Shown here in pieces: positions 12,655 through 61,627 of a DNA stretch of 64,000 nucleotides. The DNA is from a virus (Duplodnaviria > Caudoviricetes): IMG/VR virus record IMGVR_UViG_3300028048_000038, positions 224,001-288,000 of that record. One strand, 5' to 3'. A program made the translations under genes and the position numbers. The notes beneath the pieces are model-generated. The model was not told where the DNA came from and did no database searches. It was given only the letters and a program-made list of their open reading frames with translations. Each line of letters opens with the position of its first letter. Position 1 is the stretch's first letter.

Positions 12655-13911
12655 ATGAAAGTAAATATTACAGAAAATCAATATAATAAACTAAAATTGA
12701 TAGAGGATGAGAACCCATATTATAATGACCAAAAAATAAATGGGGAAAATCTTAATGTTCTATGGGCTGCGATTAAAAAGAAACAGCAAGAACTATTCCA
12801 AGAAACCTTCAATGATTTAGATGAATTGACTAGAAGCAAAGCTGAAATATACGGAGAAGAAAAACTCGATGTTCCAAGAGTAATTGCTTTAGCTGGTAAT
12901 GCGAAAGTACCTCAGAATGTTCTTATGATTAATATTACATCTGCTTTGGCTTGCCCTTCATACTATCTTGGTATCTGTACAATTAAGAATGGAGCTTGTT
13001 ATGCACAAAGAGGTGAAAACCAGTATCCAAATTCAAGAAACAGAAATCTTCAAAATGACTTGATGAATACTGAACTATTAAGGAAGTATCAAAAAGGTAA
13101 TAAGAAACCAATGAGAGATTATTTCAGTCTTGTTGAAATGTATATCCAAATTGGTAATGCAGCAGCAAAAAATATATATACTCAAACAATAGATTCCTTA
13201 AGAAGAAGAGGAAAAGTAATAACTCCAGAGGTAGAACAAACAGTAAAAGACATTTCAGAAGAACCAAAAATAACTGATATAAGACTTAATGAAGCTGGAG
13301 ACTTCCCTTGCCAATTATCAGTTGACCTTTGGAGTAAATTCGCTAAAAAAGTCGGTGCTAAATACGGAATAAAAGTACATGCTTATACTGCAAGAAATCT
13401 AGATTTCTCAAATAGACCAGAGAATTTCTCTGTTCTTCCTTCACATGAAGGTATCAATATAGGTGAAGAACCAAATAGAAGATTCCATGCTGTAAATGAT
13501 AACCTCTATGACTCATTACAAGGTGGAGACCAAGTAGATAATAATTTCCAACCTATACTTGGTGAACATAATGGTAAATTCTTCTATAAATGCCCTTGTG
13601 GCGAGGGAGAGCCACATTGTGACTTGTGTAGAGTATGCTTTAACCGTAATAAAACTGGAAAACCATATACTATCTTTGTTAGGTATCATGGCTTAACAGC
13701 AGCCAATGGCTTAAAGCATCTATTCAAAAAAGATGAGATTGATAAGTCCATTAAGTTAGCTATTCAAAACGGATGGGCTAGCCCAAGTGAAATCAAATCA
13801 TATAATTCTCAGAAGAATCAAAAACGTTTAAATACTATGTCAGATAAAATTGACAATATGAGGGCAAAAGCCCAAAAACCATTAGGAAAAAGAAAAAAGG
13901 CTAAGATTTGA
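12655..13911 (+). CDS. Gp88-like Cys-rich (radical-SAM-like) protein with N-terminal leader motif
   Basis: GNAK, ACPS...C...CYA, IRLNEAGDF, AYTAR, C-terminal CPC...CDLCRVC; start at ATG 12655 after TATTTATT (12629-12636). Confidence 0.6.
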   Translation: MKVNITENQYNKLKLIEDENPYYNDQKINGENLNVLWAAIKKKQQELFQETFNDLDELTRSKAEIYGEEKLDVPRVIALAGNAKVPQNVLMINITSALACPSYYLGICTIKNGACYAQRGENQYPNSRNRNLQNDLMNTELLRKYQKGNKKPMRDYFSLVEMYIQIGNAAAKNIYTQTIDSLRRRGKVITPEVEQTVKDISEEPKITDIRLNEAGDFPCQLSVDLWSKFAKKVGAKYGIKVHAYTARNLDFSNRPENFSVLPSHEGINIGEEPNRRFHAVNDNLYDSLQGGDQVDNNFQPILGEHNGKFFYKCPCGEGEPHCDLCRVCFNRNKTGKPYTIFVRYHGLTAANGLKHLFKKDEIDKSIKLAIQNGWASPSEIKSYNSQKNQKRLNTMSDKIDNMRAKAQKPLGKRKKAKI

Positions 13912-13927
13912 TTTCTTAGCCTTTTTT
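13893..13927. terminator. Bidirectional terminator
   Basis: AAAAAAGGCTAAGA-loop-TCTTAGCCTTTTTT between convergent genes. Confidence 0.85.
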
Positions 13928-13947
13928 ATTTCCTCAAGTACCATATT

Positions 13948-14235
13948 TTATCTATTCTTACTTAACTCTACAAGTCTTTGCTTATATTTCTCTCTATCCT
14001 CTTGAGTTAAAACATGTGGTGTCCTCCCAATGTGCCATTTTCCGCAAGACCAACACTTGTAAGCCGATAACTTATGTATGGTGTTTCCATAGGCATTGTA
14101 ATAGCAAGCTTGCTTAAACGCTTCTTCCTCGCTATTAAACTGCTTCTTTGGTTTCTCAACCTTCTCGCCATTCTCACCAATATACTTAAATGTAGTACAT
14201 TTCATATTGGTTGGTTTGAATTTGTTACCACTCAT
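13948..14235 (-). CDS. Small Zn-ribbon protein
   Basis: AYKCWSCGKWHIG motif; start uncertain (ATG 14235 overlaps the upstream stop). Confidence 0.65.
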   Translation of the reverse strand: MSGNKFKPTNMKCTTFKYIGENGEKVEKPKKQFNSEEEAFKQACYYNAYGNTIHKLSAYKCWSCGKWHIGRTPHVLTQEDREKYKQRLVELSKNR

Positions 14236-14404
14236 ACCCATACCACTGCTTTTTACCGTGTCCACCAGAATCGTCTTCGCCAATCTTCTTGTTCTTGATA
14301 CGAAGCCACTTGTTCATCTGTTTCTTAGCCCACTTATAGGACTTACGCTTACGTCTCTTCTCAGAGTACATGTAAGGCTCTAACTGTTCTCTATATAATG
14401 CCAT
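14225..14404 (-). CDS. Small basic hypothetical protein
   Basis: MALYREQ... begins 15 nt after the -7 element. Confidence 0.6.
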   Translation of the reverse strand: MALYREQLEPYMYSEKRRKRKSYKWAKKQMNKWLRIKNKKIGEDDSGGHGKKQWYGYEW

Positions 14405-14419
14405 AACTTCTTTTTCTTG

Positions 14420-14470
14420 TAAAGATATGAAAAAAAATTGAGCTGACAAAATATCAGCCCAAATTTTAAC
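14420..14470 (-). promoter_or_regulatory. Fused terminator-promoter cassette, copy 1
   Basis: Hairpin TTGGGCTGA-tattttg-TCAGCTCAA, U-tract, then TATCTTTA; TTTG in the loop lies 19 nt upstream of the -7. Confidence 0.7.
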
Positions 14471-15865: not shown

Positions 15866-16226
15866 TTTTCTTCCTTTCTTCCATTTTTTCCTTTATTAGC
15901 TTCCTTTGTAATCTATCGGCAATCACATCACCATGACATGCCTTTGGTTTGCAGAAACATTGAAGGTATATATCTTCCCCATTTTTGTAATGTTCATATA
16001 TTTCATCGAAAGCCCTAGTAAACCATTCATCCTTTCCATAGACTTCATCGAAATACTTTTCATAGGCTTCGATAGCTTGTTCCCTAGTCTTGAATGACAT
16101 GGTTTTGAATATGCTTCTGACACCATTATGAGTGAATGGATTTCCTAATGGGCTACCTCTGCCGATATAGAAATTATTTTCTTTACTTGTATAATCCTCT
16201 TGATGACTATTATAAACGTATATCAT
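15834..16226 (-). CDS. DUF4326-family protein
   Basis: YIGRGSPLGNPF...LQCFCKPKACHGDVI. Confidence 0.85.
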   Translation of the reverse strand: MIYVYNSHQEDYTSKENNFYIGRGSPLGNPFTHNGVRSIFKTMSFKTREQAIEAYEKYFDEVYGKDEWFTRAFDEIYEHYKNGEDIYLQCFCKPKACHGDVIADRLQRKLIKEKMEERKKNEKISNEKKD

Positions 16227-16732
16227 AGTTCAACTCCATTCCTTAACATCCATTTATTGTATGAAACATACCAATGATTGACATACCTATCATATCTTGC
16301 AATGTTTTCTTTGAGAAAATTATGCCACTTCTTTATCAATCTAGTTTCCCAATATCGTCTATATCCAATCTTATCTGGAATCTCAGTCGCCTCTCTTCCA
16401 AGAAATCTATTCTTATTTTTTGATGTTCCAATAATTGATGGCATATAAAATAAAAGATATCTCATAAATGATGATAAAGACGTACAAGTAGATGATTCAC
16501 CATATCTTCCAAGATGATTCGATAAATACATACTATTATACATAATTCTCTCTGCAAAAGAATTCTCTATTTCAAATATTTCTTTTTCTTTCTCAGAATA
16601 AAATCTTTTTCTCCATATATAAAGATTCTTCTTATCACGTATCTTGGTACGTATTTCCGTCATTAGTGCTAATCTCTCGTTTGGAGTAACCCCATGTTTT
16701 AAAAACAGTTTAAAAATTTCAGTTGGTGTCAT
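16223..16732 (-). CDS. Hypothetical protein, tandem paralog 3
   Basis: MTPTEIFKLFLK...LSSFMRYL...KWHNFLKENI. Confidence 0.75.
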   Translation of the reverse strand: MTPTEIFKLFLKHGVTPNERLALMTEIRTKIRDKKNLYIWRKRFYSEKEKEIFEIENSFAERIMYNSMYLSNHLGRYGESSTCTSLSSFMRYLLFYMPSIIGTSKNKNRFLGREATEIPDKIGYRRYWETRLIKKWHNFLKENIARYDRYVNHWYVSYNKWMLRNGVEL

Positions 16733-17231
16733 TGGTCTTTAATTTAAAATCGTAACACTCACCCTTCTTGAATGGGCTGTTAAACTTTTTCTCACTCTCT
16801 ATCCTTTCCCTTAAAAACTGATTCCATTTCCTTTTATAGTAGTTGATGTACATTCCAGCATTATAATATTGAAATGTCACAAAATAGTCCTTAACCTCTC
16901 CAGTATAGTTACCAAGCCAATCCTTAATTCTAAACTTTCTATCCTTACCCTCATTTTTAACCTTAAAATCATTCGCTATCCGCATCCATCTAGGATTTTT
17001 ATGTCTGTTTTTCTTCAGATTAGGGGCAAGGATGAATAACCTAGTCATGTAGTTATTCAATGCCCTTTTATTCCTAGCTAGATAGTCTTCAACAAATGTT
17101 GGGGTATATAGAGGTCTTTTCCTAAAATACTTATTACCATTGTCCTTCAATATCGTATACTTGAAGAATCTCATTTCATCGATGGTACAGCATTCCTTGA
17201 GGAAAAGAAATAATACTTGAGTCGCTGTCAT
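16719..17231 (-). CDS. Hypothetical protein, tandem paralog 2
   Basis: MTATQVLFLFLKE...FVEDYL.R..R.L..YMTRLFIL.P.L...KWNQFL...SEKKFNS. Confidence 0.78.
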   Translation of the reverse strand: MTATQVLFLFLKECCTIDEMRFFKYTILKDNGNKYFRKRPLYTPTFVEDYLARNKRALNNYMTRLFILAPNLKKNRHKNPRWMRIANDFKVKNEGKDRKFRIKDWLGNYTGEVKDYFVTFQYYNAGMYINYYKRKWNQFLRERIESEKKFNSPFKKGECYDFKLKTNDTN

Positions 17232-17686
17232 TATTTATATTCGTAACTATACGTTTCACCTTCCTTATAGACACTATTGAATTTCTTCTCACTTGTTATG
17301 TGTTTCTCTAGAAATACATGCCACTTATCACGATAAATCGAAACACATTTTGAGTTTACATGTGCCTTGAAAAAATATTCATCCTCTTCTCTAGGATTCG
17401 CATGCCAACCGAAATAGCGAGGTCTTATGTCACTATAAATCTTCTTATATGTTGGATTGTCTAACCCACACACTAGAAGACTAGGACAAAGGACAAACAC
17501 TCTTGTCATAAACCCACCAAGAGTCCTTCTTGTCCTACAGAGGTATTCCTCAACAAATCCTTTTCCCAATACTGGTCTTATCTTACCCCCTCTTCTTCTC
17601 CTTGATAAATGGTGCATGAAAAAGAGATATTCGTTCACGGAAAGTTCCTTCTTGAGAAAGAGCATGAATACTTGAGTTGCTGTCAT
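17231..17686 (-). CDS. Hypothetical protein, tandem paralog 1
   Basis: MTATQVFMLFLKK...FVEEYL.R..R.L..FMTRVFVL.P.L...KWHVFL...SEKKFNS. Confidence 0.78.
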   Translation of the reverse strand: MTATQVFMLFLKKELSVNEYLFFMHHLSRRRRGGKIRPVLGKGFVEEYLCRTRRTLGGFMTRVFVLCPSLLVCGLDNPTYKKIYSDIRPRYFGWHANPREEDEYFFKAHVNSKCVSIYRDKWHVFLEKHITSEKKFNSVYKEGETYSYEYK

Positions 17687-20703: not shown

Positions 20704-21162
20704 TTAATACTCAGAAAAATAATCTTGTTCACTTGGAATATCAAAATCGGTATAATCGACATTAATAACACTTTCCAATGCTCTCTTTACAATTCCATTA
20801 TCGTGAATTTGGATGCAGCCTTCACCATCACGGTTGCAGAACTCAATGCTTCCAACCTCCACTGTCGGTTTGTCAATTATTTGGTCATCGTCATTTGGCA
20901 CATCGTAAGAATTACTTCTCATACCTTGTTGCATATATGGGTCACATTCCACATTATATGTTATATATGCGTAATCGCCACCTTGCAAATAGAATTCACC
21001 TTCATTTTCTCCAGCTGTAACATCTAGTTGTCCTTGGCTTGCAATGGATTGGGCGATATTTTGCAAGAGCAAGTTGTTATCTTGTTCATGCAGTATTCTC
21101 AGCACACTGCGTTGGACAAGATTGTGCAAATCTGACTCAGTTAATCTAATTATTTTCCTCAT
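20704..21162 (-). CDS. Leader-motif protein (putative internal virion protein)
   Basis: MRKIIRLTESDLHNLVQRSVLRILHE; TATTTATA at 21188-21195. Confidence 0.75.
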   Translation of the reverse strand: MRKIIRLTESDLHNLVQRSVLRILHEQDNNLLLQNIAQSIASQGQLDVTAGENEGEFYLQGGDYAYITYNVECDPYMQQGMRSNSYDVPNDDDQIIDKPTVEVGSIEFCNRDGEGCIQIHDNGIVKRALESVINVDYTDFDIPSEQDYFSEY

Positions 21163-21239
21163 TATATTTTTTTTTATATATTTCTATTATAAATATAATG
21201 AGTTAACAAAAACTATTAAACAAATAACGTTAAAATTAC

Positions 21240-21704: not shown

Positions 21705-22388
21705 TTATTTCTCTTTTTTAGTAGATATTAACACTTTATCAGCTATGCACAAATCCTCCACTGCTTCTGCACCTATATACCATTTGTCTCTATCGCATAA
21801 TTCTTCTATCTCTTCGTATGTCTTTCCACAATTGTCTGAAAGAATCTTATACAAGTCATCTTGGCATCTTAATGTTTGTTCCATTTCAATCTTAATATCG
21901 GCAGTATGTCCTTGAAAACCACTTGAAACAGAATGTATCATTACCCTACTATGTGGCAATACAAACCTTTTACCCTTTGTACCACAGCTTAATAATACAG
22001 CACCCATAGAAGCTGCCATCCCAAGACAAGTTGTTGAAATATCTGACTCAATGAAGTTCATGGTATCAATCAATGATAGCCCAGCTAAGACATCACCACC
22101 TGGACTTGATATATAAAGACTTATATCCCTATTATCAACTGAGTTTAAGTAAAGCATTTGTGCTATCATGGTATCCATTGATAAACTATCTACTTGCCCG
22201 CTTAGAAACAGTATTCTGTCTTGTATCAATCTAGAAAATACATTCATTTCTGAAACTCTCATTGCTGAATCACGTTCCTCAATAATGGTTGGATATACCA
22301 TGTCCTTAATCTTATCGTCAATTACTGAAGGTGACATACCCACCTTATCAATCGCAAAATGTCTAAAATCCTTTGTAATAATATCCAT
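21705..22388 (-). CDS. clpP: ATP-dependent Clp protease proteolytic subunit
   Basis: SRLIQDRILFL, YISSPGG, GMAASMG (Ser), MIH (His), DRD (Asp). Confidence 0.95.
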   Translation of the reverse strand: MDIITKDFRHFAIDKVGMSPSVIDDKIKDMVYPTIIEERDSAMRVSEMNVFSRLIQDRILFLSGQVDSLSMDTMIAQMLYLNSVDNRDISLYISSPGGDVLAGLSLIDTMNFIESDISTTCLGMAASMGAVLLSCGTKGKRFVLPHSRVMIHSVSSGFQGHTADIKIEMEQTLRCQDDLYKILSDNCGKTYEEIEELCDRDKWYIGAEAVEDLCIADKVLISTKKEK

Positions 22389-29137: not shown

Positions 29138-29614
29138 TTAATATCCACTTTCGGCATCATTAGCGAAATCTCCAACTTCTATCTTCTTATATATCACCCT
29201 TGCAAGATGGTCTCCAAGTGTTGTATTAAACCATTCGTCAAATTGTAATGACTGAACATCACTTCGATTCATTTGTCTACCAAAGCCACTATGTCCCAAT
29301 ACAACGTTATCTATAGTGAAATCACCATCAAAACTACCTCTTATAGATACTGCTTCACTCATTCCTTCACCATAATCGGCTTCGAATTCATAATATGAAT
29401 CTCCAGTTTCCCAGACATATACATTCCTTAAATCTTGAGGTGTTATATGTTCAACTTCACTTATTGGATTATAAGTGTCAAGCTCATTTGGATTTCCAGT
29501 ACTTGCAAAGTCTTCATCTGAGAACTGATTAAAATCTTCTTTCAAGATTCTAGTTACAGATTCTTTTACAATGTTATGGAGTTCGCCTTCTGTTAATCTA
29601 ATTATCTTTTTCAT
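29138..29614 (-). CDS. Leader-motif protein (putative internal virion protein)
   Basis: MKKIIRLTEGELHNIVKESVTRILKE. Confidence 0.75.
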   Translation of the reverse strand: MKKIIRLTEGELHNIVKESVTRILKEDFNQFSDEDFASTGNPNELDTYNPISEVEHITPQDLRNVYVWETGDSYYEFEADYGEGMSEAVSIRGSFDGDFTIDNVVLGHSGFGRQMNRSDVQSLQFDEWFNTTLGDHLARVIYKKIEVGDFANDAESGY

Positions 29615-32113: not shown

Positions 32114-32452
32114 CTACTTTTTGCGATTCATTGATATTGAACCACCTCTTTTCAATGCAGGACCCATATCAACTTGATTTGTCTTTGCTTGAGTCACATC
32201 ACCAAGATTATGTGCTTGACGCATGATAGGTTCACTAAATGCGTTTCCTCCTACTTTTTTTTTATTCTTTCCTCCAAAAGCAGGCGCATCAATATGGTTC
32301 TTAGCTTGTCCAGCAGCACCACCTACATTGATACCAACACAGTTTGTAGCACCACCACCGCCAATTTCGCCATCTTCTTTCAATATTCTATATACAGCTT
32401 CCTTTACAATATTATGTAAGTCGCTCTCTGTAAGTCTAATTATCTTGTTCAT
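32114..32452 (-). CDS. Leader-motif protein, Gly-rich
   Basis: MNKIIRLTESDLHNIVKEAVYRILKE; TATTTATA at 32474-32481. Confidence 0.75.
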   Translation of the reverse strand: MNKIIRLTESDLHNIVKEAVYRILKEDGEIGGGGATNCVGINVGGAAGQAKNHIDAPAFGGKNKKKVGGNAFSEPIMRQAHNLGDVTQAKTNQVDMGPALKRGGSISMNRKK

Positions 32453-32514
32453 ATATAAACACATTTATTTTAATATAAATATTACACTTATACCAAAATT
32501 TTTATTTAGATAAT

Positions 32515-33796: not shown

Positions 33797-33830
33797 ATAA
33801 CATTATTTTTTATATAAATATCATAATAAC

Positions 33831-44286: not shown

Positions 44287-44324
44287 CTTACCTAAAATTT
44301 ATTTATTATAAATATCTGAAAATA

Positions 44325-44440: not shown

Positions 44441-45835
44441 ATGAAAGGTAAAAAATTAACAAACGAAGAATTTATCAAAAGAGTAAATGAATTATATAAC
44501 GCAAAATATGATTTGTCAAAAGCTGATGTGAATAATAGAGACGAAAAGGGTAGAGTGTGTATAATTTGTCCAATTCATGGTGAATTCTGGAAAACCCCTA
44601 ATAATGTATTACTTGGTCACGGATGTCCAAAATGTACTTTTGAAAAAATTGGACAAGATAAAACACAAACAACAGAGTGGTTTATAAATAAGTCCAACAA
44701 AATACATAATAACAAATATAATTATTCTAAAACCAAATACATAGGAAACAGATACAACGTAGAGATAATATGCCCAATTCATGGTTCTTTTATTCAGCAA
44801 GCAGATAATCATTTAAAAGGTATGGGATGCCCTAAATGTGCTTGTGAAAAAATAAGCAAATTAAGAAGTATCTCCACAAATGATTTTATAAAACGCTCAA
44901 AAGAAATATTTGGCGATAATAGATTTTCATATGAAAAAACCAATCTTGAAGAAAGAAGAGAAGACGGAAAAGTTTGTATAACTTGTCCTATTCATGGCGA
45001 CTTCTGGCAGTTACCATCAAGTCATCTTCAAGGTAATGGATGTCCCAAATGTGGCTTAGAAGAAATAAAAAAAATATTAACCAAAACTACAGAACAATTT
45101 ATAGAAGAAAGTAAAAATATTCATGGTGATAAATACGATTATTCAAAAGTTAAATATAAACATAGCTTAGATAAAGTTTGTATAATTTGTCCAAAACACG
45201 GCGAATTTTGGCAAACGCCATCAAGTCATTTAGATGGTAGTGGATGCCCAAAATGTGCAAATAATCAACCAATAAACACAGAAGAATTTATTAAAAGGTC
45301 AAAAGAAAAACACGGTGAATTATATGACTATTCTAAATCTGAGTATAAAAATAATAGAACTAAGATAGAAATAATATGTCATAAGAAAGATTCAAACGGA
45401 ATAGAACACGGCTCTTTTTTCACTACTCCTCATTCTCATATACAAGGAAGTGGCTGTCCGAAGTGTAAACAAAACTATCGTTTAGAAAATGAAGTTAGAT
45501 TGTTACTAACCAAAAATAATATAGATTTTGAAGAAAAGAAAACATTTGATGGATTAAAATATAAAAGCGCACTTAGACCTGATTTTTATTTACCAAAAGA
45601 AAATATAATAATAGAATGTCAAGGAGAACAACATTTTAAACCAATTAACTTTGGTGGAAAAGATACCAAAACGCTGCAAAAAGAATATGAATTAAATCAA
45701 ATAAGAGACAAAATTAAAAAGAAATATTGTGAAGAACATAATATCAAGTTATTAGAATATACACATTTAGATATTAAAAATAAAAATTTAATCAAAACAA
45801 AAGAGAGATTATTAAAAGAAATTAAAAAAAAATGA
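44441..45835 (+). CDS. Free-standing homing endonuclease: 5 CPxHG/GCPKC repeats plus Vsr-like nuclease
   Basis: Repeats IICPIHGEFW...GxGCPKC; DFYLPKENIIIECQGEQH; own TATTTATA at 44419-44426. Confidence 0.75.
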   Translation: MKGKKLTNEEFIKRVNELYNAKYDLSKADVNNRDEKGRVCIICPIHGEFWKTPNNVLLGHGCPKCTFEKIGQDKTQTTEWFINKSNKIHNNKYNYSKTKYIGNRYNVEIICPIHGSFIQQADNHLKGMGCPKCACEKISKLRSISTNDFIKRSKEIFGDNRFSYEKTNLEERREDGKVCITCPIHGDFWQLPSSHLQGNGCPKCGLEEIKKILTKTTEQFIEESKNIHGDKYDYSKVKYKHSLDKVCIICPKHGEFWQTPSSHLDGSGCPKCANNQPINTEEFIKRSKEKHGELYDYSKSEYKNNRTKIEIICHKKDSNGIEHGSFFTTPHSHIQGSGCPKCKQNYRLENEVRLLLTKNNIDFEEKKTFDGLKYKSALRPDFYLPKENIIIECQGEQHFKPINFGGKDTKTLQKEYELNQIRDKIKKKYCEEHNIKLLEYTHLDIKNKNLIKTKERLLKEIKKK

Positions 45836-48688: not shown

Positions 48689-49189
48689 CTACTCGCCAAA
48701 TTTAAAGTCATTAAGTCTGTTAAGCCATCCAGCAAGAAATTTCTCCTTTCCATTCTTAGCTATATCTTGGAAATGCTTCTTTCTTCTGTTCCAGAGCTTA
48801 TTGAATAATTCCTTTTTATCTTTATAGTTATTAATGGCGGCAATGGTTTTAGAGCCTACAACGCCATCATCCTTAACACCAAGCACCCTTTGTGGTAGCT
48901 TGATACCATAAACGCCACTAGTCCAGCACCAATCTACAAGCAAATTGGCAATTGATTGATTATCAATCTCATCAGCTTTCCATCTATCCCAATATCCTTC
49001 CTTAAAGATTAAATCCCATTCAGCTTGCGTTATTCCTTTCAAGTCTTTGCAGTTCTTATCCTTTCCGAAGAATTTCCTATATGTAGCCAACGTAACACCC
49101 TTCATAGTACAAGTAGCCCCATCGATGTTGCCACAATAGCCACCTTCCCATTTAAGTACAATTGGCGTTAATTTTGTGTAAATTGCCAT
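48689..49189 (-). CDS. Endolysin, glycoside hydrolase 108 with peptidoglycan-binding domain
   Basis: WEGGY, T.KGVT, DW.W.SG, DGVVGSKT, KFLAGWLNR. Confidence 0.9.
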   Translation of the reverse strand: MAIYTKLTPIVLKWEGGYCGNIDGATCTMKGVTLATYRKFFGKDKNCKDLKGITQAEWDLIFKEGYWDRWKADEIDNQSIANLLVDWCWTSGVYGIKLPQRVLGVKDDGVVGSKTIAAINNYKDKKELFNKLWNRRKKHFQDIAKNGKEKFLAGWLNRLNDFKFGE

Positions 49190-49664: not shown

Positions 49665-52600
49665 TCATGGATGTGGAACATCGCTTTGTCTTACATTATT
49701 CATGTAGTTATAGCCACTAGCCTCAGAAGATTCGTCTGTTGAGTAATTGGTCTTATAACCAGCTGCTTCTGCCTTTGCTTTAGCCTCTGTATCACTTGGA
49801 CTGTAGTACAAACCGCAATCCCAAATATTACTCAAATATAGACCATTCTGCATAGAATCTATTGATGGTGTAGTTCCACTAGGACCTTCTTGTACACATG
49901 CAATTCTAAGAACGTTGGTATCAGTGAATTCGTTGGTTGTTGGGTCAATGTAATCACCAGTCAAATCATCAATAATTACGTCATCATCGGTTTGTTCTGA
50001 GAATCTACCACGAGAAAGTCTTGCGTGAACTTGCATCTTTCTGTTTGCTCCATCCTCAACCCATTCTGATTCAGTTGAACAAGTCTTTCCGCTTACCCAC
50101 ATTGTGAGAAGTTCACAAATCTGGTCATTAAGCATTTGGTCAGCCTCGTTGAATGAAGTTGCAGCACTGATAATACAAGCGCCTACATATGGTTGATATC
50201 TTGCACCCTCTCCACACTCTGGTAACATTGAACCCTCGCCATAAAGCATTTCATATATCTTATTGGCTTTCTTGTCAATACATTCAACATCGTCTGAAGA
50301 TTCATCTATCTTTGATTCAACTCTAGCTAGATTTTGGTCTAAGATAAAGTCTGCATTACTGAAAGATGTTGCACTATTAGTGTATTTTCCTTGTGGATTT
50401 GGCTCGTATCTATATCCTTCTCCACACTCTTGTCCTATCTGATGACCTAAGACTACATTCTCAAGAACCTTAAGTTCGTTCTTGGTACATTCAGCAGTTT
50501 CCTCTGCTTCGCTCATTGCAGATGAAGAAACGTAGAGTCCGTTATTAACAATCTGAACAGCATTATCTGGTAGGTTTGTTAACAATATACGTCCGCTAAG
50601 TTTGTCTTGTCCTCCAGGTTCTACCGATGGGGTCTTTGTCAACTCTACAGCACTATTCTCAGATGCATTATATGTATCCCACTCATTGAACAACTCTGCT
50701 ACTGGGAAACTAACCGTATGTACACCACCATTACCGTCATGATAGGTTATCACTAAGGCTTTATTGGTTGAATCGTATACAAGACTATCAATTACAGTAG
50801 CACCAGCAAGTTGATACTCCTCTTCTCCTGCTGTTGTAGTAAGCTTAATCTTGTTTGTGCCAGTATCGTATGATAGATGAGCTGTTGCATACAAGCCTTG
50901 ACCAAGTTTGATTAAGTTGTCACCCCCTTGAATCTTCACATTTGCCTTAACCACGTTGTTTTCTTCACTTGGAATGTTGAAGTCGATTGATGTGGTGTCA
51001 TCAAATGTTAGGGTTGCATCGATAATCATCTGTTCAAGTTCGGCATCCTTTGCTTGTCTTGCTTGCGTTTCTGCTGTTAGAGCGTTTGACAAGTTCGTGT
51101 CAGCATTTTCTCTGTTGTTCTTTTCAGTCTCCAATGCCTCTGAAATGGTATTTTCAGCAACTTGTGCTCTTGAAACCTCTTGATTGATTCTTGATGATAA
51201 ATCTGCATCTGCAACTGTTCTGTCAGAAGTCTCGTCAGCAATCTTCTGATAAAGTTCATTATCAGCGTTCTGTGCTCTAAGTGTCTCAGTGACGATTGCT
51301 GCATTAAGTTCGCCTTCCTTGGTTTGCGCCCTAGAAATCTCAGCCTCAAGCCTTGTATCAAGTCTTTGTTCGGTTTCTCTTGCACGTGCCTCTTCGGAAT
51401 CAATCTTGGTGTCGAGTATTTCTTCAGCATTTTCAGCCCTTGATGTTTCATCATCAATAAGATGTGAAAGGTTGTTGATTGATGTCTGTAATGCAGTTTC
51501 AGCACTGATTGCACGAGTGACTTCAGTATCAATCTTAGAGTTAAGAGTGTTCTCTTCTGATTCTGCACGATTGATTTCGCTAGTCAAATCACTTCTCAAC
51601 TGTGCGATTGCACTCTTATTATCTTCAATCTGTTGACCAGATACATAAAGTGCGCCATGCTCATTTTTAAGTATATTGTCATCATGAGCTGTAGTTATAA
51701 CAACCTCACCAGATAGTTTATCCTTTCCGTCAATTACTCTCTGCCTATTGAGTTTAATTGCGCTGTTTGGGTCATTGTACACTTCCCACTCTTGGAAAAT
51801 CTCTCCAAGTGGAATACGGAGTTCCTTCTGTTCAGAACCACTATGATACTTAATGATAAGAGTCTCAGTGGTTGGGTCATATTCCATGCCATCGATTATT
51901 GACACGCTATTAAGCTGAATCTCTTTGCTAACATTCTCAGTAGAAGCATTATCAGATTTTGTAAGAGTCAACTTATTGGTATCAGGATTGTAATTCAAGT
52001 CGATGAAATTATACAAGCCATCATGTTCAAGTCTAAGGGTGTTATTAGGCTCAATTGCGCTTAAGTTAACCTTTACGACCTTTGTAATGTTATCTTCATC
52101 TGAAGAACCAGTAGTGGAAACATCAATTGAATTATCAGTGTTAATGACATCCTTTATACTCTTGTGTGCGCTATCCTTAACAGCATCAACTTCATCTCTT
52201 ACTGTATTACGAGCACCAAATCCATCGCCAATCTCTGTATCAATTGCATCAAGTCTTCCGTCATGCTCAGTATCCTTCGCTTCTGAACGGTCAATCTCAC
52301 CTTGAAGCTTGTCAGCCTCTGAATTAACTTGGTTTTGTAACTGTTCAAACTTGTATGTCACTGTCTCATGTGCATCTGTTGAGAAGCCATTGCCAATTGT
52401 GGTGTCAATTCTACCTTCCTCTCTAGTTGCACGAGCTGTCTCAGAATCAATTTTGTTGTTCAAGGTTTCTTCTGCATTCTCTGCTCTAGCAATTTCCAAG
52501 TTAATCTTATTGTCAAGAGCATAGTCAATTTCATGAAGAGTATCAATCTCTTTCTTAACATTTGAATCCTCACCATGTCTGATATTGTCAGAAGTACCCT

Positions 52601-54029
52601 TTACGAACAACTCATGATTTTTATCAACCAAGATGTTATCTGGGTCATTGAATATCTTTGCGTCTGCTGAAACCTTATCGTTTCCGCTAACCTTTCTAAC
52701 CTTAATGAGCTTAATGTTGTGACCTTCATTTTGAACTTCCCATTCCCAATCACGAATCATGTCACCAATTGGTATTTCAACAAACTGTGTAACTCCCTTG
52801 TTATCCTTATAGGTTACAATAAGAGCCTCCTTAGTTGGGTCATAGTAGATATGTTCAAAAAGCTCAACACTATTCAACAAGATTTCAGTTTTCTTTTCTC
52901 CGTTCTGTCCAGAAGTCTTAAAGACAAGCTTGTTGTCCTTAGATACATACTCTAGCTTAGATGAAGCGAAGAAACCATCTGTCTTTTCAGTGATTATATT
53001 GTCACTATCGCTTGAAAGTTTAATGTTTACAAGGTCATCGAGAGTATCTTTTACATTTGATAGCTCACCGTTTCTATAATAAACTATGTTAGATGCCTTA
53101 CCATCAACGTACAAGTATCTTCCATCACTTGTTCTCTGTAAGATGTTTGTTGATTTCTCCTTATCTAGAGGGAGTGGTTTGCCTTGCTCATCAAACTCTT
53201 CGTCCTTAATTCTTACGTTAGCTTTAAGAACGTCTTGCCAAGGTTCAAGTCTTGAATATTCTTCAGTACCATACTTAACCTCTTCCTTGGTAAGAATGAC
53301 TGGAGACTTAGCGGCATCGCCAATAACATCCCATTCAGCGATAAGGTATTTGCAGTCCACAACAATTTCATCACCCTTCTTCATGTTGAAATGAAGTGAC
53401 TCGTCTTGTACACTATATCTTCCACTGATTAGATGGTCATCTGAAATGTCAACTGTGGTGGCGGAAAGAGTGCCATCGCTGTTACTAACAGTAAATGTAA
53501 ACTCTTCATTTTCCTTATCATAGTCAAGGTTAACGTACATGAATATACCGTCTGGTGTCACCATCAAGTTATCCTTATATCTTACATCATTGAAAATGTA
53601 AGAATCTGCCACCTTAACATCGCCACTTACATAAGTGCCATCATCTGTTTTATTGGCATATAAATTCAATGTCTCACTATCAAGTGGTACAATAGTAAGT
53701 GATTTTAAAGCCTTTTCAAGCTCCTCTTGCAAATCAGCAATTTCTTCCTCTGTTTTATCAATGTCGATGATACAGAATCTGTTCTCACTGTATTGAGTTC
53801 CCTCATTTGTGACAGAACCAATTGCCAAAATGATATGTGGATTTGTCTCATCCTCTTCATTCTTATATCTGAGAACTGTTGGCTCTGAGAACAAAGAATA
53901 CCCAAGAGTTCTGTCATTTACAGAAAGACCACTATCAGCAAATCTTATCTGACTCTTAATGTATCCAATAGCATCTTCCCTAGTCTCGAATACATTGCTG
54001 TGATGTCTAAATTGTAATCTATTATTCAT
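49665..54029 (-). CDS. Long tail-fibre-like protein with repeated beta modules and ExxRA coiled-coil repeats
   Basis: Four copies of a YDPT...L.I.Y...IP...EW.V...DKLSG module separated by EI.RA..AE..L..KI repeats. Confidence 0.65.
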   Translation of the reverse strand: MNNRLQFRHHSNVFETREDAIGYIKSQIRFADSGLSVNDRTLGYSLFSEPTVLRYKNEEDETNPHIILAIGSVTNEGTQYSENRFCIIDIDKTEEEIADLQEELEKALKSLTIVPLDSETLNLYANKTDDGTYVSGDVKVADSYIFNDVRYKDNLMVTPDGIFMYVNLDYDKENEEFTFTVSNSDGTLSATTVDISDDHLISGRYSVQDESLHFNMKKGDEIVVDCKYLIAEWDVIGDAAKSPVILTKEEVKYGTEEYSRLEPWQDVLKANVRIKDEEFDEQGKPLPLDKEKSTNILQRTSDGRYLYVDGKASNIVYYRNGELSNVKDTLDDLVNIKLSSDSDNIITEKTDGFFASSKLEYVSKDNKLVFKTSGQNGEKKTEILLNSVELFEHIYYDPTKEALIVTYKDNKGVTQFVEIPIGDMIRDWEWEVQNEGHNIKLIKVRKVSGNDKVSADAKIFNDPDNILVDKNHELFVKGTSDNIRHGEDSNVKKEIDTLHEIDYALDNKINLEIARAENAEETLNNKIDSETARATREEGRIDTTIGNGFSTDAHETVTYKFEQLQNQVNSEADKLQGEIDRSEAKDTEHDGRLDAIDTEIGDGFGARNTVRDEVDAVKDSAHKSIKDVINTDNSIDVSTTGSSDEDNITKVVKVNLSAIEPNNTLRLEHDGLYNFIDLNYNPDTNKLTLTKSDNASTENVSKEIQLNSVSIIDGMEYDPTTETLIIKYHSGSEQKELRIPLGEIFQEWEVYNDPNSAIKLNRQRVIDGKDKLSGEVVITTAHDDNILKNEHGALYVSGQQIEDNKSAIAQLRSDLTSEINRAESEENTLNSKIDTEVTRAISAETALQTSINNLSHLIDDETSRAENAEEILDTKIDSEEARARETEQRLDTRLEAEISRAQTKEGELNAAIVTETLRAQNADNELYQKIADETSDRTVADADLSSRINQEVSRAQVAENTISEALETEKNNRENADTNLSNALTAETQARQAKDAELEQMIIDATLTFDDTTSIDFNIPSEENNVVKANVKIQGGDNLIKLGQGLYATAHLSYDTGTNKIKLTTTAGEEEYQLAGATVIDSLVYDSTNKALVITYHDGNGGVHTVSFPVAELFNEWDTYNASENSAVELTKTPSVEPGGQDKLSGRILLTNLPDNAVQIVNNGLYVSSSAMSEAEETAECTKNELKVLENVVLGHQIGQECGEGYRYEPNPQGKYTNSATSFSNADFILDQNLARVESKIDESSDDVECIDKKANKIYEMLYGEGSMLPECGEGARYQPYVGACIISAATSFNEADQMLNDQICELLTMWVSGKTCSTESEWVEDGANRKMQVHARLSRGRFSEQTDDDVIIDDLTGDYIDPTTNEFTDTNVLRIACVQEGPSGTTPSIDSMQNGLYLSNIWDCGLYYSPSDTEAKAKAEAAGYKTNYSTDESSEASGYNYMNNVRQSDVPHP

Positions 54030-54052: not shown

Positions 54053-56347
54053 TTAAATTTCGCCAAAGTCCGCATCGAACTTAATCTTTACAAAGTGCTC
54101 ATCAATACCATCCTTTGACTTAAGAACTAGATTGTATTCATCCTTTTCAACTGCTGTTGAAAGGGTGTAGTCCTCACTAGTGTCGATGGTTTGACCAGAA
54201 ATTTCATCTTCAGCAGCCTTTGCTCTCTCAATTTCCTCGAAAAGCTCTTCCTCGATTTCATCCTCTCTAGCTGTTGCTCTCTCGGTTTCAGCTTCAATCT
54301 TCTCGTCAAGTATTGTTTCAGCACTGATAGCTCTCTCGATTTCAGCCTCAATCTTTTCATCAAGCATTGTCTCAGCACTGATGGCTCTTGCCGTTTCAGC
54401 TTCAATCTTCTCGTCAAGTATTGTTTCAGCACTGATAGCTCTCTCGATTTCAGCCTCAATCTTTTCATCAAGCATTGTTTCAGCACTGATAGCCCTTGCA
54501 ATCTCAGCATCTAGGTCTTCACGAAGTGTATCAACAGCTCCAGATATGAATCTATCAGCCTCAATACGTTCCATGCGCTCGTTGCTTATTCTGCGGCAAA
54601 GCATTTCATCAGCCCTCTCACGCTCATAACGTTCCTCATCAATCATAGGAACAATTATATGAAGAACTCTCTCTACAACAAGGTCATCTGTATTTTTCAA
54701 AACCTTATCACAGCCATCATCAGAAAGATATACTCTATACTCAATGTTTGTTTGTGAAACCTTTGGTATTTCAACTTCGATGCAACGCTCGATACCTTCT
54801 CCATCAACCCAACAAACAATTGTTGTATCACCACTAGTCTTATCAAAGCATGGATTCTCGATTACAATTGTAGTTCCTTCCTCCATAACCTTCTTTTCCC
54901 AATAAGTACCATTGAATTCATTAATGAACATTTCTACTCTCTTCTCGTTTGGAAGATTGCCATTATTAGGAACTAAAACCTCTGGTGTCTTGTTGCTCTC
55001 ATCGAGATTATCGATTGTTACAAATCCTTTCTTATCAGCAAAGTTGCTCGCAAGCCAAATCTGTCCACTCTGTGGGAAAAGGATAGCCTTATACATCACA
55101 CCATTGATGTATTCAGCATCACGATAGTTAGAGCCATCATAGTTCTTAACCAATCTCACTGAATAATATGGGTCTGGACATTCAGCAACTTGATATACGC
55201 CACTCTTGTCATAGTCAAATACCTTTACATAGGTATCTTGTCCTAGACCTAAATCAGTGGTTGTCCAAAAAGCAGTAGTTTCCTTAAAACCTTCTGAACG
55301 TTGACTACCCCTAACAAATGTAGAAACACCACTTGGCAATATTGTCATACCAAAGTTGTCAGTTCCAACTGGATTTATTTCTACCTCATTAGGCATGTCA
55401 TTAACCTCATCCCAATCGAATGGATAATCCTCGGTGGGCGTTTCATCTACGGTTGTGCAACCAGTGTATGGTCTCTTTCCAGTACAAGTGCATTCGTATT
55501 CAGAGTTAACCCATCCGCATTCTGACTTTAAGTACTTACCAGCAAGTTTACCCAACTCAATGTGGCACTGAGCTGATGTATGATTTCTATAATTACAAGG
55601 TTCAATTGAATTAAGAAGTGCATCCCAATCTGCCTTTGAAGGAACACGCCAATAGTTCTCCCTATCACCAACTTCCTTCCTAATCTCTTCTCTTTCATAC
55701 TCATTGTCAAGAATCTCTTGTATCTTCTTAACACCTTCACCATTGTAAAGATAACCGTAATCGTTAACATATTCCTTGGTAACAAATCTTGTTTGATATT
55801 TTGCATTCTTAGGCAGTTCACTACCATCTGTCAAGTCCAATACCTTGTCAGCTGGAGCCAACATACCAGTTTTCTCAACACCAGCAAGACCAAGAGGTGC
55901 TTTCATAGTACCTATACCCTTAAGCGAACTATCAGAAATAACCTTAGTGAGAATGTCATGACCAATAACATCAACAAGGTTGTCAGCCGTGATTATATTC
56001 TCAATAACAAGATTATGTTCACCTTCATCATCTTTATAAGATAATCTTAATGTTTTACCTTTCTGGTAATCTTTTTCACTTGCAACGAACTCATATGTAA
56101 GATTCTTACAATGTCCTGTATCAGTGTTAATGTCTACAATTATCTTTGCATCATCATTTGTTGTAATGATTAGTTTTCCTTCTGCTTTACATTCATCTTC
56201 CCTAACAAATGTAGCATCCTTAATATCTGCATTTTTTAAGTTAAGGAAATTCTGGTCAATTTGATTTATGGTCAATTTGCAGTTGGCAGTAAAGTCGTCC
56301 TTGTAAGGAGATACTAACTTGTAGTACACAAGACCTCTATCACTCAT
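54053..56347 (-). CDS. Tail-fibre-like protein with FISUMP (Fibrobacter succinogenes major paralogous) domain and 18-aa repeats
   Basis: YGYLYN, WRVPSKADW, GKYLKS..GW, GTDNFG.TILPSG, FWTTT, SVRLVK; C-terminal EIERAISAETMLDEKIEA repeats. Confidence 0.7.
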   Translation of the reverse strand: MSDRGLVYYKLVSPYKDDFTANCKLTINQIDQNFLNLKNADIKDATFVREDECKAEGKLIITTNDDAKIIVDINTDTGHCKNLTYEFVASEKDYQKGKTLRLSYKDDEGEHNLVIENIITADNLVDVIGHDILTKVISDSSLKGIGTMKAPLGLAGVEKTGMLAPADKVLDLTDGSELPKNAKYQTRFVTKEYVNDYGYLYNGEGVKKIQEILDNEYEREEIRKEVGDRENYWRVPSKADWDALLNSIEPCNYRNHTSAQCHIELGKLAGKYLKSECGWVNSEYECTCTGKRPYTGCTTVDETPTEDYPFDWDEVNDMPNEVEINPVGTDNFGMTILPSGVSTFVRGSQRSEGFKETTAFWTTTDLGLGQDTYVKVFDYDKSGVYQVAECPDPYYSVRLVKNYDGSNYRDAEYINGVMYKAILFPQSGQIWLASNFADKKGFVTIDNLDESNKTPEVLVPNNGNLPNEKRVEMFINEFNGTYWEKKVMEEGTTIVIENPCFDKTSGDTTIVCWVDGEGIERCIEVEIPKVSQTNIEYRVYLSDDGCDKVLKNTDDLVVERVLHIIVPMIDEERYERERADEMLCRRISNERMERIEADRFISGAVDTLREDLDAEIARAISAETMLDEKIEAEIERAISAETILDEKIEAETARAISAETMLDEKIEAEIERAISAETILDEKIEAETERATAREDEIEEELFEEIERAKAAEDEISGQTIDTSEDYTLSTAVEKDEYNLVLKSKDGIDEHFVKIKFDADFGEI
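54285..54492. repeat. In-frame tandem repeat (54-bp unit, 108-bp higher-order period)
   Basis: 54285-54370 is identical to 54393-54478. Confidence 0.9.
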
Positions 56348-56819: not shown

Positions 56820-57296
56820 TTAAAATGGTATTTTCTTTAGATTTCCATTATTTTCATAGTAGAACATTTCTCCGTTTTTAACAACAATGTTTGGCCACTT
56901 CTTATCATATCCGTGATAGTTTGCTCTACGAGCACGAACCCACATTCCAGCGTTTAGAACCTTCTGCTGTATTGGACTCAACTTGTCTTGGTTATCATAA
57001 AGCCACTGCATTTCCTTCTCAGAGAAGATATGGTCTTGTGACTCATGTTCTTTTAGAATATTCTTTACAGCTTCCATCACCATTCTGTGAAGGTCGTTCT
57101 CGGTCAATCTTATGATATTTTCCTCAACTTTCTCTGGAAGTCCCTTATGCTTTGTCTCAGCAAAATCCTTGACATCACTCATTGACATTCCATCTGCTGC
57201 TTTCTTTATCTTGCTGCTAGCATCCTTCATTTCACCCTTCTTATAGGCATCTACCATTCCGAAGAATCTCTGTTGCGCTTTACTTTTGCTTGGCAT
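56820..57296 (-). CDS. DUF3008-like N-terminal domain plus internal leader motif
   Basis: MPSKSKAQQR...MS..DVKDFAETKHKGLPEKV followed by IIRLTENDLHRMVMEAVKNILKE. Confidence 0.7.
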   Translation of the reverse strand: MPSKSKAQQRFFGMVDAYKKGEMKDASSKIKKAADGMSMSDVKDFAETKHKGLPEKVEENIIRLTENDLHRMVMEAVKNILKEHESQDHIFSEKEMQWLYDNQDKLSPIQQKVLNAGMWVRARRANYHGYDKKWPNIVVKNGEMFYYENNGNLKKIPF

Positions 57297-57323: not shown

Positions 57324-57938
57324 TTATTTAAGCTTAACTCTTATTAAAAAATCTTTCAAACAAGCATTCACATCATAATCTATATCTCTTACTATTGAAT
57401 ATAAATCATCACAGTCCAAATTCTGCGTCTTCAAGAATTCAACATCTTCATCATCACCATTTCCAAATGCTCTCTTTAGTTTCCTATTAAATGCATTCCC
57501 ATATGTAGGTATATACCCTCTGAAACGTTTTCCATCCCAATATATGAAAAACAATATAGGACACTCCCAATCACCGCCAGCGTAGCATTTCAGATATGTT
57601 ATACCTTTCCGTGTTTCCACTTTACCGATTGCACCAAGATTTTCGCAATCATAGTCTATCTTAGATATATCGTCTAGCAATGTTGACAATTCTTTAGGCT
57701 TATTGTTCTTGTAATTGTTACAAAACCTATATACAAAACTATCTAAGGAAAATTTTCTATCATCTTCTTTATTTCGTTCATAAATCTCTTTAATTTTTTC
57801 CTCAAATTCTTTTGCTGAAATCTTTGCTGCCGTTCTACCGCCATTAGGAAGTTCAACATCTAGATTAACAACATACCTTTTTCTACCGCCCTCTATAATT
57901 AATCTCAACTGAGATTCATTTAACATTATTCTTTTCAT
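57324..57938 (-). CDS. Protein with short leader motif
   Basis: MKRIMLNESQLRLIIE; GGDWECPILFFIYWDGK.FRGYIP..GN. Confidence 0.75.
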   Translation of the reverse strand: MKRIMLNESQLRLIIEGGRKRYVVNLDVELPNGGRTAAKISAKEFEEKIKEIYERNKEDDRKFSLDSFVYRFCNNYKNNKPKELSTLLDDISKIDYDCENLGAIGKVETRKGITYLKCYAGGDWECPILFFIYWDGKRFRGYIPTYGNAFNRKLKRAFGNGDDEDVEFLKTQNLDCDDLYSIVRDIDYDVNACLKDFLIRVKLK

Positions 57939-59901: not shown

Positions 59902-59923
59902 TATTTATAGATTATTTGCTTAA

Positions 59924-59937
59924 TATAAATATTTATA
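59924..59937. promoter_or_regulatory. Palindromic bidirectional TATTTATA promoter motif
   Basis: TATAAATATTTATA lies 22 nt and 20 nt from the two divergent start codons. Confidence 0.65.
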
Positions 59938-59957
59938 GCAAATAAAAGAATGGAATT

Positions 59958-60206
59958 ATGAAAATAATTAATTTGAATGAATCTCAGTACAGTAGGTTGT
60001 TTGAAAGCGTTACAGACCAAGACTTTGGAACTAGTACAGTTCCAGAATATGATGGTTTGGATAAGGTTGAGCTTCAGCCAACAATAACTGACAAAGATGG
60101 AAGTCCTAAGAAGGCTAATCCAATGGATACTGAGAAATTCGCAGATACACAATCTCCACAACAATGGGGTGCTGTAGGTGGTAGGAAATCATCAAATACA
60201 ATTTAA
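59958..60206 (+). CDS. Small protein with short leader motif
   Basis: MKIINLNESQYSRLFE. Confidence 0.75.
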   Translation: MKIINLNESQYSRLFESVTDQDFGTSTVPEYDGLDKVELQPTITDKDGSPKKANPMDTEKFADTQSPQQWGAVGGRKSSNTI

Positions 60207-60208
60207 CA

Positions 60209-61627
60209 ATGGCATTATTTTTAGAGGATTCACAGAAAGTAACTAGAAGGAAGGCTCCAGTTCCATTGAAGGATAGACAATACTATAGTGCATGGTATAA
60301 TGCGCTAGAGAAAGTCATGCCTAAAAATAACCTTAAAAACCTTAAGAGTCTTGCATCTACCAAGGCATATAATAAAAAAGGTAACGATAATTTGAACGGT
60401 AAGAAACAAAATACTAGCTATGTTAGCGTTGAGGATGCAAAGAAGAGAATGCAGAGAATGAATCCTAACGATATAACACAAGGTGGACAAAAGGCTTATA
60501 ATTTCTACAAGAAGACTATAGAGAGGGCTAGAAGCCAAGCAGAGGTATCTCCAATAGAGCCTCCAAAGCCTACCGCAAGTGTTAAGCCTAGCAATGTTAA
60601 CATCACAAAACAAAGCGTCCCTACTGCAAAAATTAAGACTGAGGGCAGAATTATAAAGGAAGAATTTGACAACAATCATATATTTTGGGATTATCTAAAT
60701 GATTACGGTGCTAATTACGTTTTTAATGAATTTTTGCAAAATCCAAATGGTAAGGAGAGTTGGGGCGTATTGATTAACCCAGATATGTATGCAAAGGCAT
60801 TAAGGGAATTCACACGTTTTGGTAAATTAACAACCTTTCCTACTAAATACATCTATCAATGGATGGGAATTATCATGAAGAATACTGCGATATTAAATGC
60901 TAACACTGAAATAGCAGGTCACAGTAGTAATTTCCCATTTGAGGAGTTTGAAGATTTCTTAGTCAGTTACTATGGCACTGATAGGGACATAGATGTGAAT
61001 TACGACCATACGGTGAGGATAGAGATAACACCAGAGGAAGTTGTTAAATTATGTAATGACGAGCCTATCCGTATAAATGAAGATGCTGTTGATAAATACG
61101 GACAAACGTATTTCCCTTGGGTAACTCAAGGTGAGGCTGAATTAATGGTAAAAAATCAAGAGTTACAACGTCAAAGAGAAAAGTTCCAGCAAATGTATGG
61201 CGATTTGGGAACATATGTTGAAAATTATAACAAAGAAAACAAGAATCGTGAGCAAATAACGATTGACTACCAAACAAACAAGATTTATTGGGAATTGGAT
61301 ATGTTTGAATTGTTATATCAAATTGGAATAACAGATGAGTGGATGCAGATGCCAGATGGAAGTGATGCGTTTTCTGACTTTGGCATTGAGCCAATTGTAA
61401 ACATTATTTCAGAATATGATGAGGACTTGCCACCAGAGAAGGTATTGGTTTTGGTTAACAAGGTATTGGATGTATATCACCAGAGAGGTGATTTAAGTTC
61501 AATATTTGTGCAAGGTGGTTCTAAGGCACTTGATAGGATTGCCGAGGAAATTAAGAGAAATAATAAGAAGGTGTATATCACCGAAAAACAAATATTAAGG
61601 TTACAAGATGGCAAACACAATCGATAA
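60209..61627 (+). CDS. Hypothetical multi-domain protein
   Basis: 472 aa; RIIKEE linker; C-terminal KKVYITEKQILRLQ motif. Confidence 0.8.
   Translation: MALFLEDSQKVTRRKAPVPLKDRQYYSAWYNALEKVMPKNNLKNLKSLASTKAYNKKGNDNLNGKKQNTSYVSVEDAKKRMQRMNPNDITQGGQKAYNFYKKTIERARSQAEVSPIEPPKPTASVKPSNVNITKQSVPTAKIKTEGRIIKEEFDNNHIFWDYLNDYGANYVFNEFLQNPNGKESWGVLINPDMYAKALREFTRFGKLTTFPTKYIYQWMGIIMKNTAILNANTEIAGHSSNFPFEEFEDFLVSYYGTDRDIDVNYDHTVRIEITPEEVVKLCNDEPIRINEDAVDKYGQTYFPWVTQGEAELMVKNQELQRQREKFQQMYGDLGTYVENYNKENKNREQITIDYQTNKIYWELDMFELLYQIGITDEWMQMPDGSDAFSDFGIEPIVNIISEYDEDLPPEKVLVLVNKVLDVYHQRGDLSSIFVQGGSKALDRIAEEIKRNNKKVYITEKQILRLQDGKHNR

Follow-up and report, generated by a model that had tools for sequence, protein, structure and literature searches.

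The cargo-loading peptides of encapsulins are short and portable, and dock varied cargo inside a shell with the HK97 fold. In bacteriophage T4 the gene order is 20-67-68-21-22-23, with genes 67 and 68, beside the protease gene, encoding small core proteins. The internal proteins (IPs) of T4 carry propeptides of 10-19 residues, which target them to the core and are removed by the prohead protease gp21, and Alt loses propeptides at both of its termini (PMC9026906). The protease also cuts gp67, with gp68 being listed as uncleaved, and cleavage after Glu is common to all characterised S77 proteases (PMC9026906). Phages phiKZ and SPN3US, which have S77-family proteases, load dozens of inner-body or ejection proteins into their heads and trim them after Glu (PMC5694885, PMC10052503). 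Here we describe a helical peptide of 26 residues, referred to below as the tag, that is found on a series of otherwise unrelated phage proteins, and compare it with these systems. The DNA analysed (the window) is a stretch of 64,000 nucleotides, bases 224,001-288,000 of the single 409,537-bp virus record IMGVR_UViG_3300028048_000038, which has inverted terminal repeats; the GC content of the window is ~33%. We put at roughly one in two the probability that the tag belongs to a T4-like capsid-targeting and processing system working through a different, longer and position-independent helix.

The tag and its copies

The tag has the consensus MKK-IIRLTESDLHNIVKESVxRILxE, which is 26 residues long and helical. 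As the original prediction had proposed, a hidden Markov model (HMM) was built from the tag instances and run over the whole 409,537-bp genome (G000) and its relatives. In this genome it finds 11 matches, scoring 44.6-57.8 bits, with the next open reading frame scoring 6.2 bits. Nine of the 11 copies are N-terminal. Six of them, four N-terminal and two internal, are within the window, and these are all of the six places at which a near-identical motif of ~25 residues had been noticed beforehand. The claim that at least 12 proteins of the window carry the tag was too generous, there being six firm copies and about four plausible ones. The copies are as follows; positions without a prefix are those of the window, and those marked C1 are outside it.

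20704-21162, minus strand: 152-aa protein with N-terminal tag at 21085-21162 (HMM 50.8 bits) and acidic body (pI 4.1)
29138-29614, minus strand: 158-aa protein with N-terminal tag at 29537-29614 (53.3 bits) and acidic body
32114-32452, minus strand: 112-aa protein with N-terminal tag at 32375-32452 (57.8 bits) and Gly-rich basic body; the true start is the Met at 32452
32565-32978, minus strand: 137-aa protein with N-terminal tag at 32898-32978 (47.4 bits) and Gln-rich helical body
42558-44012, minus strand: 484-aa protein with internal tag at 43116-43193, aa 274-299 (47.1 bits)
56820-57296, minus strand: 158-aa protein with internal tag at 57048-57125, aa 58-83 (52.5 bits)
C1 291182-291556, C1 298665-298946, C1 358084-358482, C1 358495-358740 and C1 358806-359135: the five HMM matches outside the window

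The anatomy of the tag was derived from database matches, using 158 distinct N-terminal and 134 distinct internal or C-terminal copies (292 in all). The residues Lys2, Ile5, Leu7, Thr8, Glu9, Leu12, Ser19, Val20 and Glu26 are near-invariant. Of the N-terminal copies, 95% have L, I or V in column 24 and 94% have Glu in column 26, with an abrupt loss of conservation at column 27; over the 292 distinct copies the information content is 3.8 bits at Glu26 and ~0.5 bits one residue further on. In the internal copies conservation starts only at Glu9, so that the core of the tag is an 18-residue helix from Glu9 to Glu26, with a third Glu at position 18. Each of the three Glu residues has an aliphatic residue two positions before it, giving L-T-E, V/I-K-E and L/I-x-E. 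AlphaFold (AF2) predicts the internal tag of 42558-44012 to be a helix, with moderate confidence, lying between two folded domains.

The 11 copies in the genome have a mean nucleotide identity of 61%. Where they share an amino acid, 43% of the codons are identical as well, and codon usage by itself would give 39%. The synonymous sites are therefore randomised, and selection acts on the peptide and not on the DNA.

Association with the head genes

From its gene content the source phage is judged to be a distant T4 relative and a jumbo phage (~410 kb). Its head genes include the following.

C1 352613-354631: gp23-like capsid protein (PF07068, E 6.6e-64)
C1 354703-356181: very acidic scaffold-like protein of 492 aa, between the capsid protein and protease genes
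C1 356351-357055: S77 (gp21-type) prohead protease (PF03420, E 7.8e-24, at C1 356501-356953; phrog_207, head maturation protease, E 3e-39)
C1 362085-364130: candidate portal

The nearest cultured capsid proteins are those of Microcystis phage Mel-JY01 and Flavobacterium phage immuto, at 40-41% identity.

Three of the five tag copies outside the window are directly beside the prohead protease gene, and this arrangement is conserved. The order of a 144-aa gene, one to three tagged genes, protease, scaffold and capsid protein is kept in this genome and in four relatives (G001, G002, G006 and G012), with the candidate portal and a 769-aa gene being found further upstream wherever the locus reaches that far. 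In G009 and G010 a tagged gene is directly beside the protease, so that 7 of the 9 related genomes have a protease-adjacent tag.

The end of the tag also points to the head. The delta-domain of the capsid protein, aligned by eye, resembles that of T4 gp23. Across eight relatives it ends in L-I-Y-E or L-L-K-E, followed by A, or in L-L-N-E, followed by S (in T4, F-L-T-E followed by A), and the maturation cut of the capsid protein is probably made after this Glu. The end of the tag, I/V-L-x-E, has the same aliphatic-L-x-E pattern as the putative maturation site. Given that the tag ends in the motif expected for a T4-type head protease, its most likely role is to bring proteins into the capsid as it forms.

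A further link is provided by a promoter-like motif. It had been noted that the tagged operons are preceded by TATTTAT(A/T), and this is borne out, with the motif sharpened to ATATTTAT[AT]. Units headed by this motif contain 10 of the 11 tagged genes, against 33% of all genes (Fisher p = 1e-4); with weak copies of the tag included, the figure is 16 of 18 against the same 33% (p = 1e-6). The motif is also found 14-75 nt upstream of the capsid, scaffold-like, protease, candidate portal and candidate terminase, sheath-sized, neck and fibre-sized genes. The tagged genes are probably expressed late, together with the head genes. The motifs that serve tagged genes in the window are:

21188-21196, minus strand: ATATTTATA, upstream of 20704-21162
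32474-32482, minus strand: ATATTTATA, heading the unit from 32452 down to ~28858, which has two tagged genes
33813-33821, minus strand: ATATTTATA, heading the unit 33796-32565
44307-44315, minus strand: ATATTTAT[AT], heading the unit 44286-42558
59924-59937, both strands: two overlapping divergent copies of ATATTTATA, serving 59901-56820 (minus strand) and 59958-61627 (plus strand)

The overlap of the two opposite-strand copies at 59924-59937 forms a divergent promoter-like pair.

It is worth adding some observations on the sequence at the centre of the tag. The pattern [IVL][KR]ES[IVLM] occurs 7 times in the proteome, against 3.2 expected. Two of the six matches that are not tags are in the delta-domain of the capsid protein (C1 352613-354631, aa 21-25) and at the N-terminus of the scaffold (C1 354703-356181, aa 10-14). 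Both sites are conserved in relatives, an observation made post hoc, and the pattern could represent either a shared protease site or a shared contact. A tag-like segment in the scaffold was sought and rejected: the full tag HMM gives -2 to 1.5 bits on nine scaffold-like proteins, in the range of shuffled sequences and other genes.

Spread of the tag

An exhaustive profile search of 1.84 billion cluster representatives identified 6,609 proteins at E <= 1e-3, including 877 at E <= 1e-10. The best database matches mostly have two or three copies of the tag. Apart from one NCBI-sourced protein, the sources are metagenomes (gut, rumen), and none of them gives a functional name. Pfam and PHROG have no family for the tag, and our literature search found no paper with the motif strings or with DUF3008; the Jug-phage and jumbo-phage survey papers mention no such tag.

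In IMG/VR there are 264 confirmed tag places. The 25 larger tag-bearing viral contigs that were examined are all jumbo-phage genomes or fragments of them, and 16 have an S77 protease, among them all three complete ones. Ten relatives, comprising three complete genomes and seven large fragments, have 7-19 tags each. Tag-bearing cellular records are exclusively contigs of metagenome-assembled genomes, mostly binned as Prevotella or Bacteroidaceae from ruminant guts, with two of them binned under other taxa; these contigs are probably phage DNA.

A few open frames of 44-60 aa contain little beyond the tag (G012:C1:158382-158471, G009:C1:1224-1307 and G003:C1:386395-386478). These may be remnants, small peptides or mis-called genes.

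Modular arrangement of the tagged proteins

The original prediction held that the bodies after the tag are unrelated to one another, and this stands: BLAST among the tagged proteins matches the tag alone, and the bodies of the tagged proteins in the genome belong to no Pfam or PHROG family. In charge the bodies fall into two kinds, very acidic (pI 4.1) and basic (pI 9.6-9.9), and polar, disorder-prone residues are abundant in them.

The tag is a sharp boundary between exchangeable modules. In 42558-44012 a conserved N-domain (aa 1-272) is followed by the tag, a variable middle part and a conserved C-domain. Among its homologues the N-domain is followed by the tag in 119 of 120, with variable C-parts thereafter, and its C-terminal module is found in G002 as a stand-alone, N-terminally tagged gene. 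The protein 56820-57296 consists of a DUF3008 domain (aa 4-57; PF11450, E 1.9e-7), the tag and a variable C-part; compared with relatives it is 85% identical over the first 84 aa, and homology stops at the end of the tag. In the database proteins P0049, P0064, P0068 and P0115 the same modules are found in differing orders, with a tag or half-tag before each.

Related phage genomes also contain multi-tag open frames without stop codons. One protein of 667 aa has a tag at both termini (L116:1365-3368 in G010). A conserved family of 600-711 aa has two internal tags ~165-190 residues apart (L117:808-2631 in G007, L120:540-2489 in G001, and C1 20535-22670 in the present genome), and its N-terminal domain has a weak, below-cutoff match to DUF5856 (E 0.0045). 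Because the tag also occurs within proteins, in duplicate or triplicate, and at C-termini, it is a docking module independent of position and not a strict N-terminal signal. The earlier reading of the tag as an address label has to be widened accordingly, from N-termini to internal, repeated and C-terminal copies.

The set of tagged proteins varies between close relatives. A comparison of three near-identical genomes gives three conserved tagged proteins (83-97% identity), and the rest are divergent, half-swapped or unique. Among those encoded in the window, 29138-29614 has orthologues in G001 and G002 at 88-97% identity, 20704-21162 has orthologues in two relatives at 57-65%, and the body of 32565-32978 is conserved over only half of its length among relatives.

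Pfam gave no credible domain for 123 tagged proteins and 37 longer ones. The N-domain of 42558-44012 folds confidently (pLDDT 82), with structural matches to uncharacterised phage proteins only; a sequence profile search against the PDB and a protein atlas gave nothing for it, and PDB structure searches with models of 42558-44012 gave a best Z of about 6 (<= 6.4). With the full-length model the top BFVD match is named PolyVal ART (E 2e-7, TM 0.15). This match vanishes when the domain alone is used, and an ADP-ribosyltransferase identity for the N-domain is not supported. The proposal that the tagged proteins are injected effectors is unsupported, because no recognisable domain was found in the ~160 tagged proteins. 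Ejection of the cargo, or action on the host, is likewise not supported.

Short-form tags and neighbouring genes

Shorter versions of the tag had also been proposed. A loose tag pattern, written after seeing examples, has 24 matches, against 3.4 in shuffled sequences; with the strong copies excluded, five of the remaining matches adjoin a possible start codon, where 0.93 would be expected (p = 0.003), among them those at 12655, 33195-33590 and 57324-57938. No N-terminal enrichment is seen with a half-tag HMM, and the reading of the short forms as truncated long tags was rejected. The candidates are:

12655-12711, plus strand: candidate 19-aa short-form tag at the start of 12655-13911, matching the loose pattern only
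33540-33590, minus strand: candidate 17-aa short-form tag at the start of 33195-33590, with the loose pattern at the N-terminus; in the unit headed by ATATTTATA at 33813-33821
57888-57938, minus strand: candidate 17-aa short-form tag at the start of 57324-57938, matching the loose pattern; in the unit headed by the motif at 59924-59932
59958-60008, plus strand: candidate 17-aa short-form tag at the start of 59958-60206, matching the loose pattern; ATATTTATA at 59929-59937

These four proposed short versions are thus retained as weak, loose-pattern candidates. For 12655 the exact promoter 9-mer was not found 12-75 nt upstream, and there is only the looser GGTATTTATTG. Two others, at 33587-33796 and 31109-31933, match no tag pattern tried, and the short version said to end 60209-61627 matches the loose pattern and nothing else. 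In favour of short forms, the more distant relative G003 has two short-form genes in the protease-adjacent slot that is occupied by long forms elsewhere.

Several other genes were noted in passing:

16223-17686, minus strand: three tandem paralogues (169, 170 and 151 aa) starting MT(A/P)T(Q/E)(V/I)F.LFLK
21705-22388, minus strand: ClpP (PF00574, E 9e-57)
44441-45835, plus strand, 62540-63625, plus strand, and C1 357096-358109: HNH/homing-endonuclease-like genes with repeated Zn-ribbon units (CPxHGxF..P..HL.G.GCP.C)
48689-49189: GH108-like lysozyme, after the large fibre-like genes
49665-54029 and 54053-56347, both minus strand: two large fibre-like proteins, the latter with tandem AISAET.LDEKIEAE.ER repeats near its C-terminus

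The paralogues at 16223-17686 share their bodies as well as their starts, and so are a small gene family and not a tag on unrelated proteins. The HNH-like gene between the prohead protease and the tagged genes matches phrog_559 (E 2e-68).

Interpretation

The tag exists, is selected as protein and forms sharp borders of exchangeable modules. The genes that carry it have a promoter motif in common with the head genes and adjoin them, and it occurs in phages that have an S77 protease. From these observations we infer core binding, cleavage and presence of the tagged proteins in the virion. The proposed mechanism is that the tag is a portable amphipathic docking helix, used by T4-related jumbo phages that form a clade and infect gut and rumen Bacteroidales, and that it would recruit mostly small proteins, in a set that varies, to the core of the assembling prohead. 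Its position would not matter: N-termini, junctions between domains and C-termini would all serve. The aliphatic-L-x-E at its C-terminal edge would be a site for the S77 protease, with Glu9-Ser10 and Glu18-Ser19 possibly being further sites. Cutting would free the cargo within the head, and would split multi-tag proteins into pieces. Loading into the prohead and cleavage at ILxE, as originally predicted, thus have circumstantial support from the S77 protease, the promoter motif of the head genes, the synteny with the protease and the aliphatic-L-x-E end. A bolder form of the proposal makes the tag a code for capsid loading that is independent of position and can be recognised in the sequence, each tagged protein, or each piece of a polyprotein, being docked and then cut after the Glu. 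This we put forward tentatively, and at somewhat worse than even odds.

Several points weigh against capsid targeting. All of the evidence is comparative, and the related genomes are not independent samples. The tag has no sequence similarity to the capsid-targeting sequence (CTS) of T4, and at 18-26 residues, as compared to 10-19, it is two to three times longer than the 10-residue T4 signal. Again unlike the T4 signal, ~45% of the distinct copies among the top database matches (134 of 292) are internal or C-terminal. The residues Thr8/Glu9/Ser10/Asp11 and Glu26-Gly could be plain helix caps and not protease sites. The late timing of ATATTTAT[AT] is deduced solely from the genes downstream of it. 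The ClpP gene is conserved in all five genomes checked, with a tagged gene ~0.1-3 kb away in each. Finally, a search of 50,697 phage records found no cultured phage with the tag, and one weak match, to an uncultured 484-kb phage.

Of the alternatives, one keeps the tag within the head. The tag would here be a head-assembly helix of transient core or scaffold-accessory proteins, like T4 gp67 and gp68, that are chopped up and expelled before DNA packaging, so that nothing would reach the next host. The two protease-adjacent tagged genes, which are 83-95% identical across the three genomes, hold the place of T4 genes 67 and 68. Three tagged proteins, these two among them, are conserved, and so may be parts of the core or scaffold and not cargo. 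In addition, several bodies are very acidic and disorder-prone, as are T4 core proteins, the three aliphatic-x-E motifs are ~9 residues apart, as if for cutting into short peptides, and no cargo with an enzyme domain was found. However, about half of the repertoire differs among near-identical genomes, which would not be expected of structural core parts; some of the bodies are basic, as in T4 internal proteins; and the bodies in the 6,609 clusters are very varied. We regard a purely core function as unlikely.

Another alternative takes the tag out of the capsid altogether. As a helix through which late proteins interact or oligomerise in general, it would serve some other hub, such as the tail or baseplate, a membrane site, a host target, or a chaperone or Clp adaptor. 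Docking modules do occur at any position and in several copies, as this helix does. Moreover, 8 of the 11 tagged genes in this genome do not adjoin head genes, some being in operons with membrane-protein and fibre genes, and the proximity of a conserved ClpP gene to a tagged gene fits as well. Against this, the aliphatic-L-x-E at which the tag ends so sharply corresponds to the putative maturation site of the capsid protein, and the synteny with the S77 protease is conserved. A Clp degron in particular was considered and judged unlikely: known degrons of this kind are short, unstructured terminal peptides, whereas the tag is a predicted helix of 24-26 residues that is also found between domains. 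The full tag model matches neither the scaffold nor any other candidate partner, so that no hub was identified. A hub outside the capsid seems to us improbable.

The weakest explanation, that a DNA-level process (a recombination or cassette-exchange site, or gene conversion) keeps the stretch alike and the peptide has no function, would account for homology among relatives often breaking exactly at the tag, but is rejected as very improbable on the nucleotide identities and codon usage given above.

Should capsid targeting be correct, the sequence could be used to predict which proteins thousands of uncultured phages package, and possibly eject (at least 6,609 protein clusters). Capsid targeting would also explain a large block of 'hypothetical' genes, and would provide a new tag with which foreign proteins could be packaged into large capsids. 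If the tag serves some other purpose, it is nevertheless a very common phage peptide module that has not been described before.

Comparison with known systems

Encapsulin cargo-loading peptides differ from the tag in that they are usually C-terminal, are not removed and bind the shell protein, and their sequences are unrelated to it. The polyvalent proteins and packaged ADP-ribosyltransferases (ARTs) (Iyer et al. 2017, PMC5512222; T4 Alt) have a recognisable enzymatic domain such as ART; in the tagged proteins Pfam found none, and the one match named after an ART is that of the full-length model of 42558-44012 described above. In phiKZ and SPN3US the cleavage sites are Ser/Ala/Gly-x-Glu and the phages are of a different lineage, with no common portable tag having been described for them.

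T4 provides closer parallels. The gp67 and gp68 proteins are likewise small helical or acidic proteins encoded beside the protease and scaffold genes; however, they have no tag in common with each other or with the internal proteins, whereas here the protease-adjacent proteins share their tag with scattered accessory genes. The CTS of IPI-III and Alt (Mullaney and Black 1996, reviewed in PMC9026906) is, like the tag, a short peptide on unrelated, poorly conserved proteins. Both end in a gp21-type Glu-specific motif, in both the set of cargo varies among related phages, and expression is late in T4 and probably so here. Alt is trimmed at both ends, and the 667-aa protein with a tag at each end might be treated likewise. 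Unlike the CTS, the tag is, as predicted from sequence, a defined amphipathic helix that is also internal, repeated and C-terminal, with 7-19 copies per genome and thousands of clusters.

The T4 signal, the textbook case of head loading, has been described for only a few proteins and in only a few coliphages. Abundant jumbo phages of animal-gut Bacteroidales appear to apply the same logic far more widely. The principle of capsid targeting is thus already known from the T4 CTS (PMC9026906); what is new is this tag, its scale, its internal and terminal use, and its polyprotein-like arrangements.

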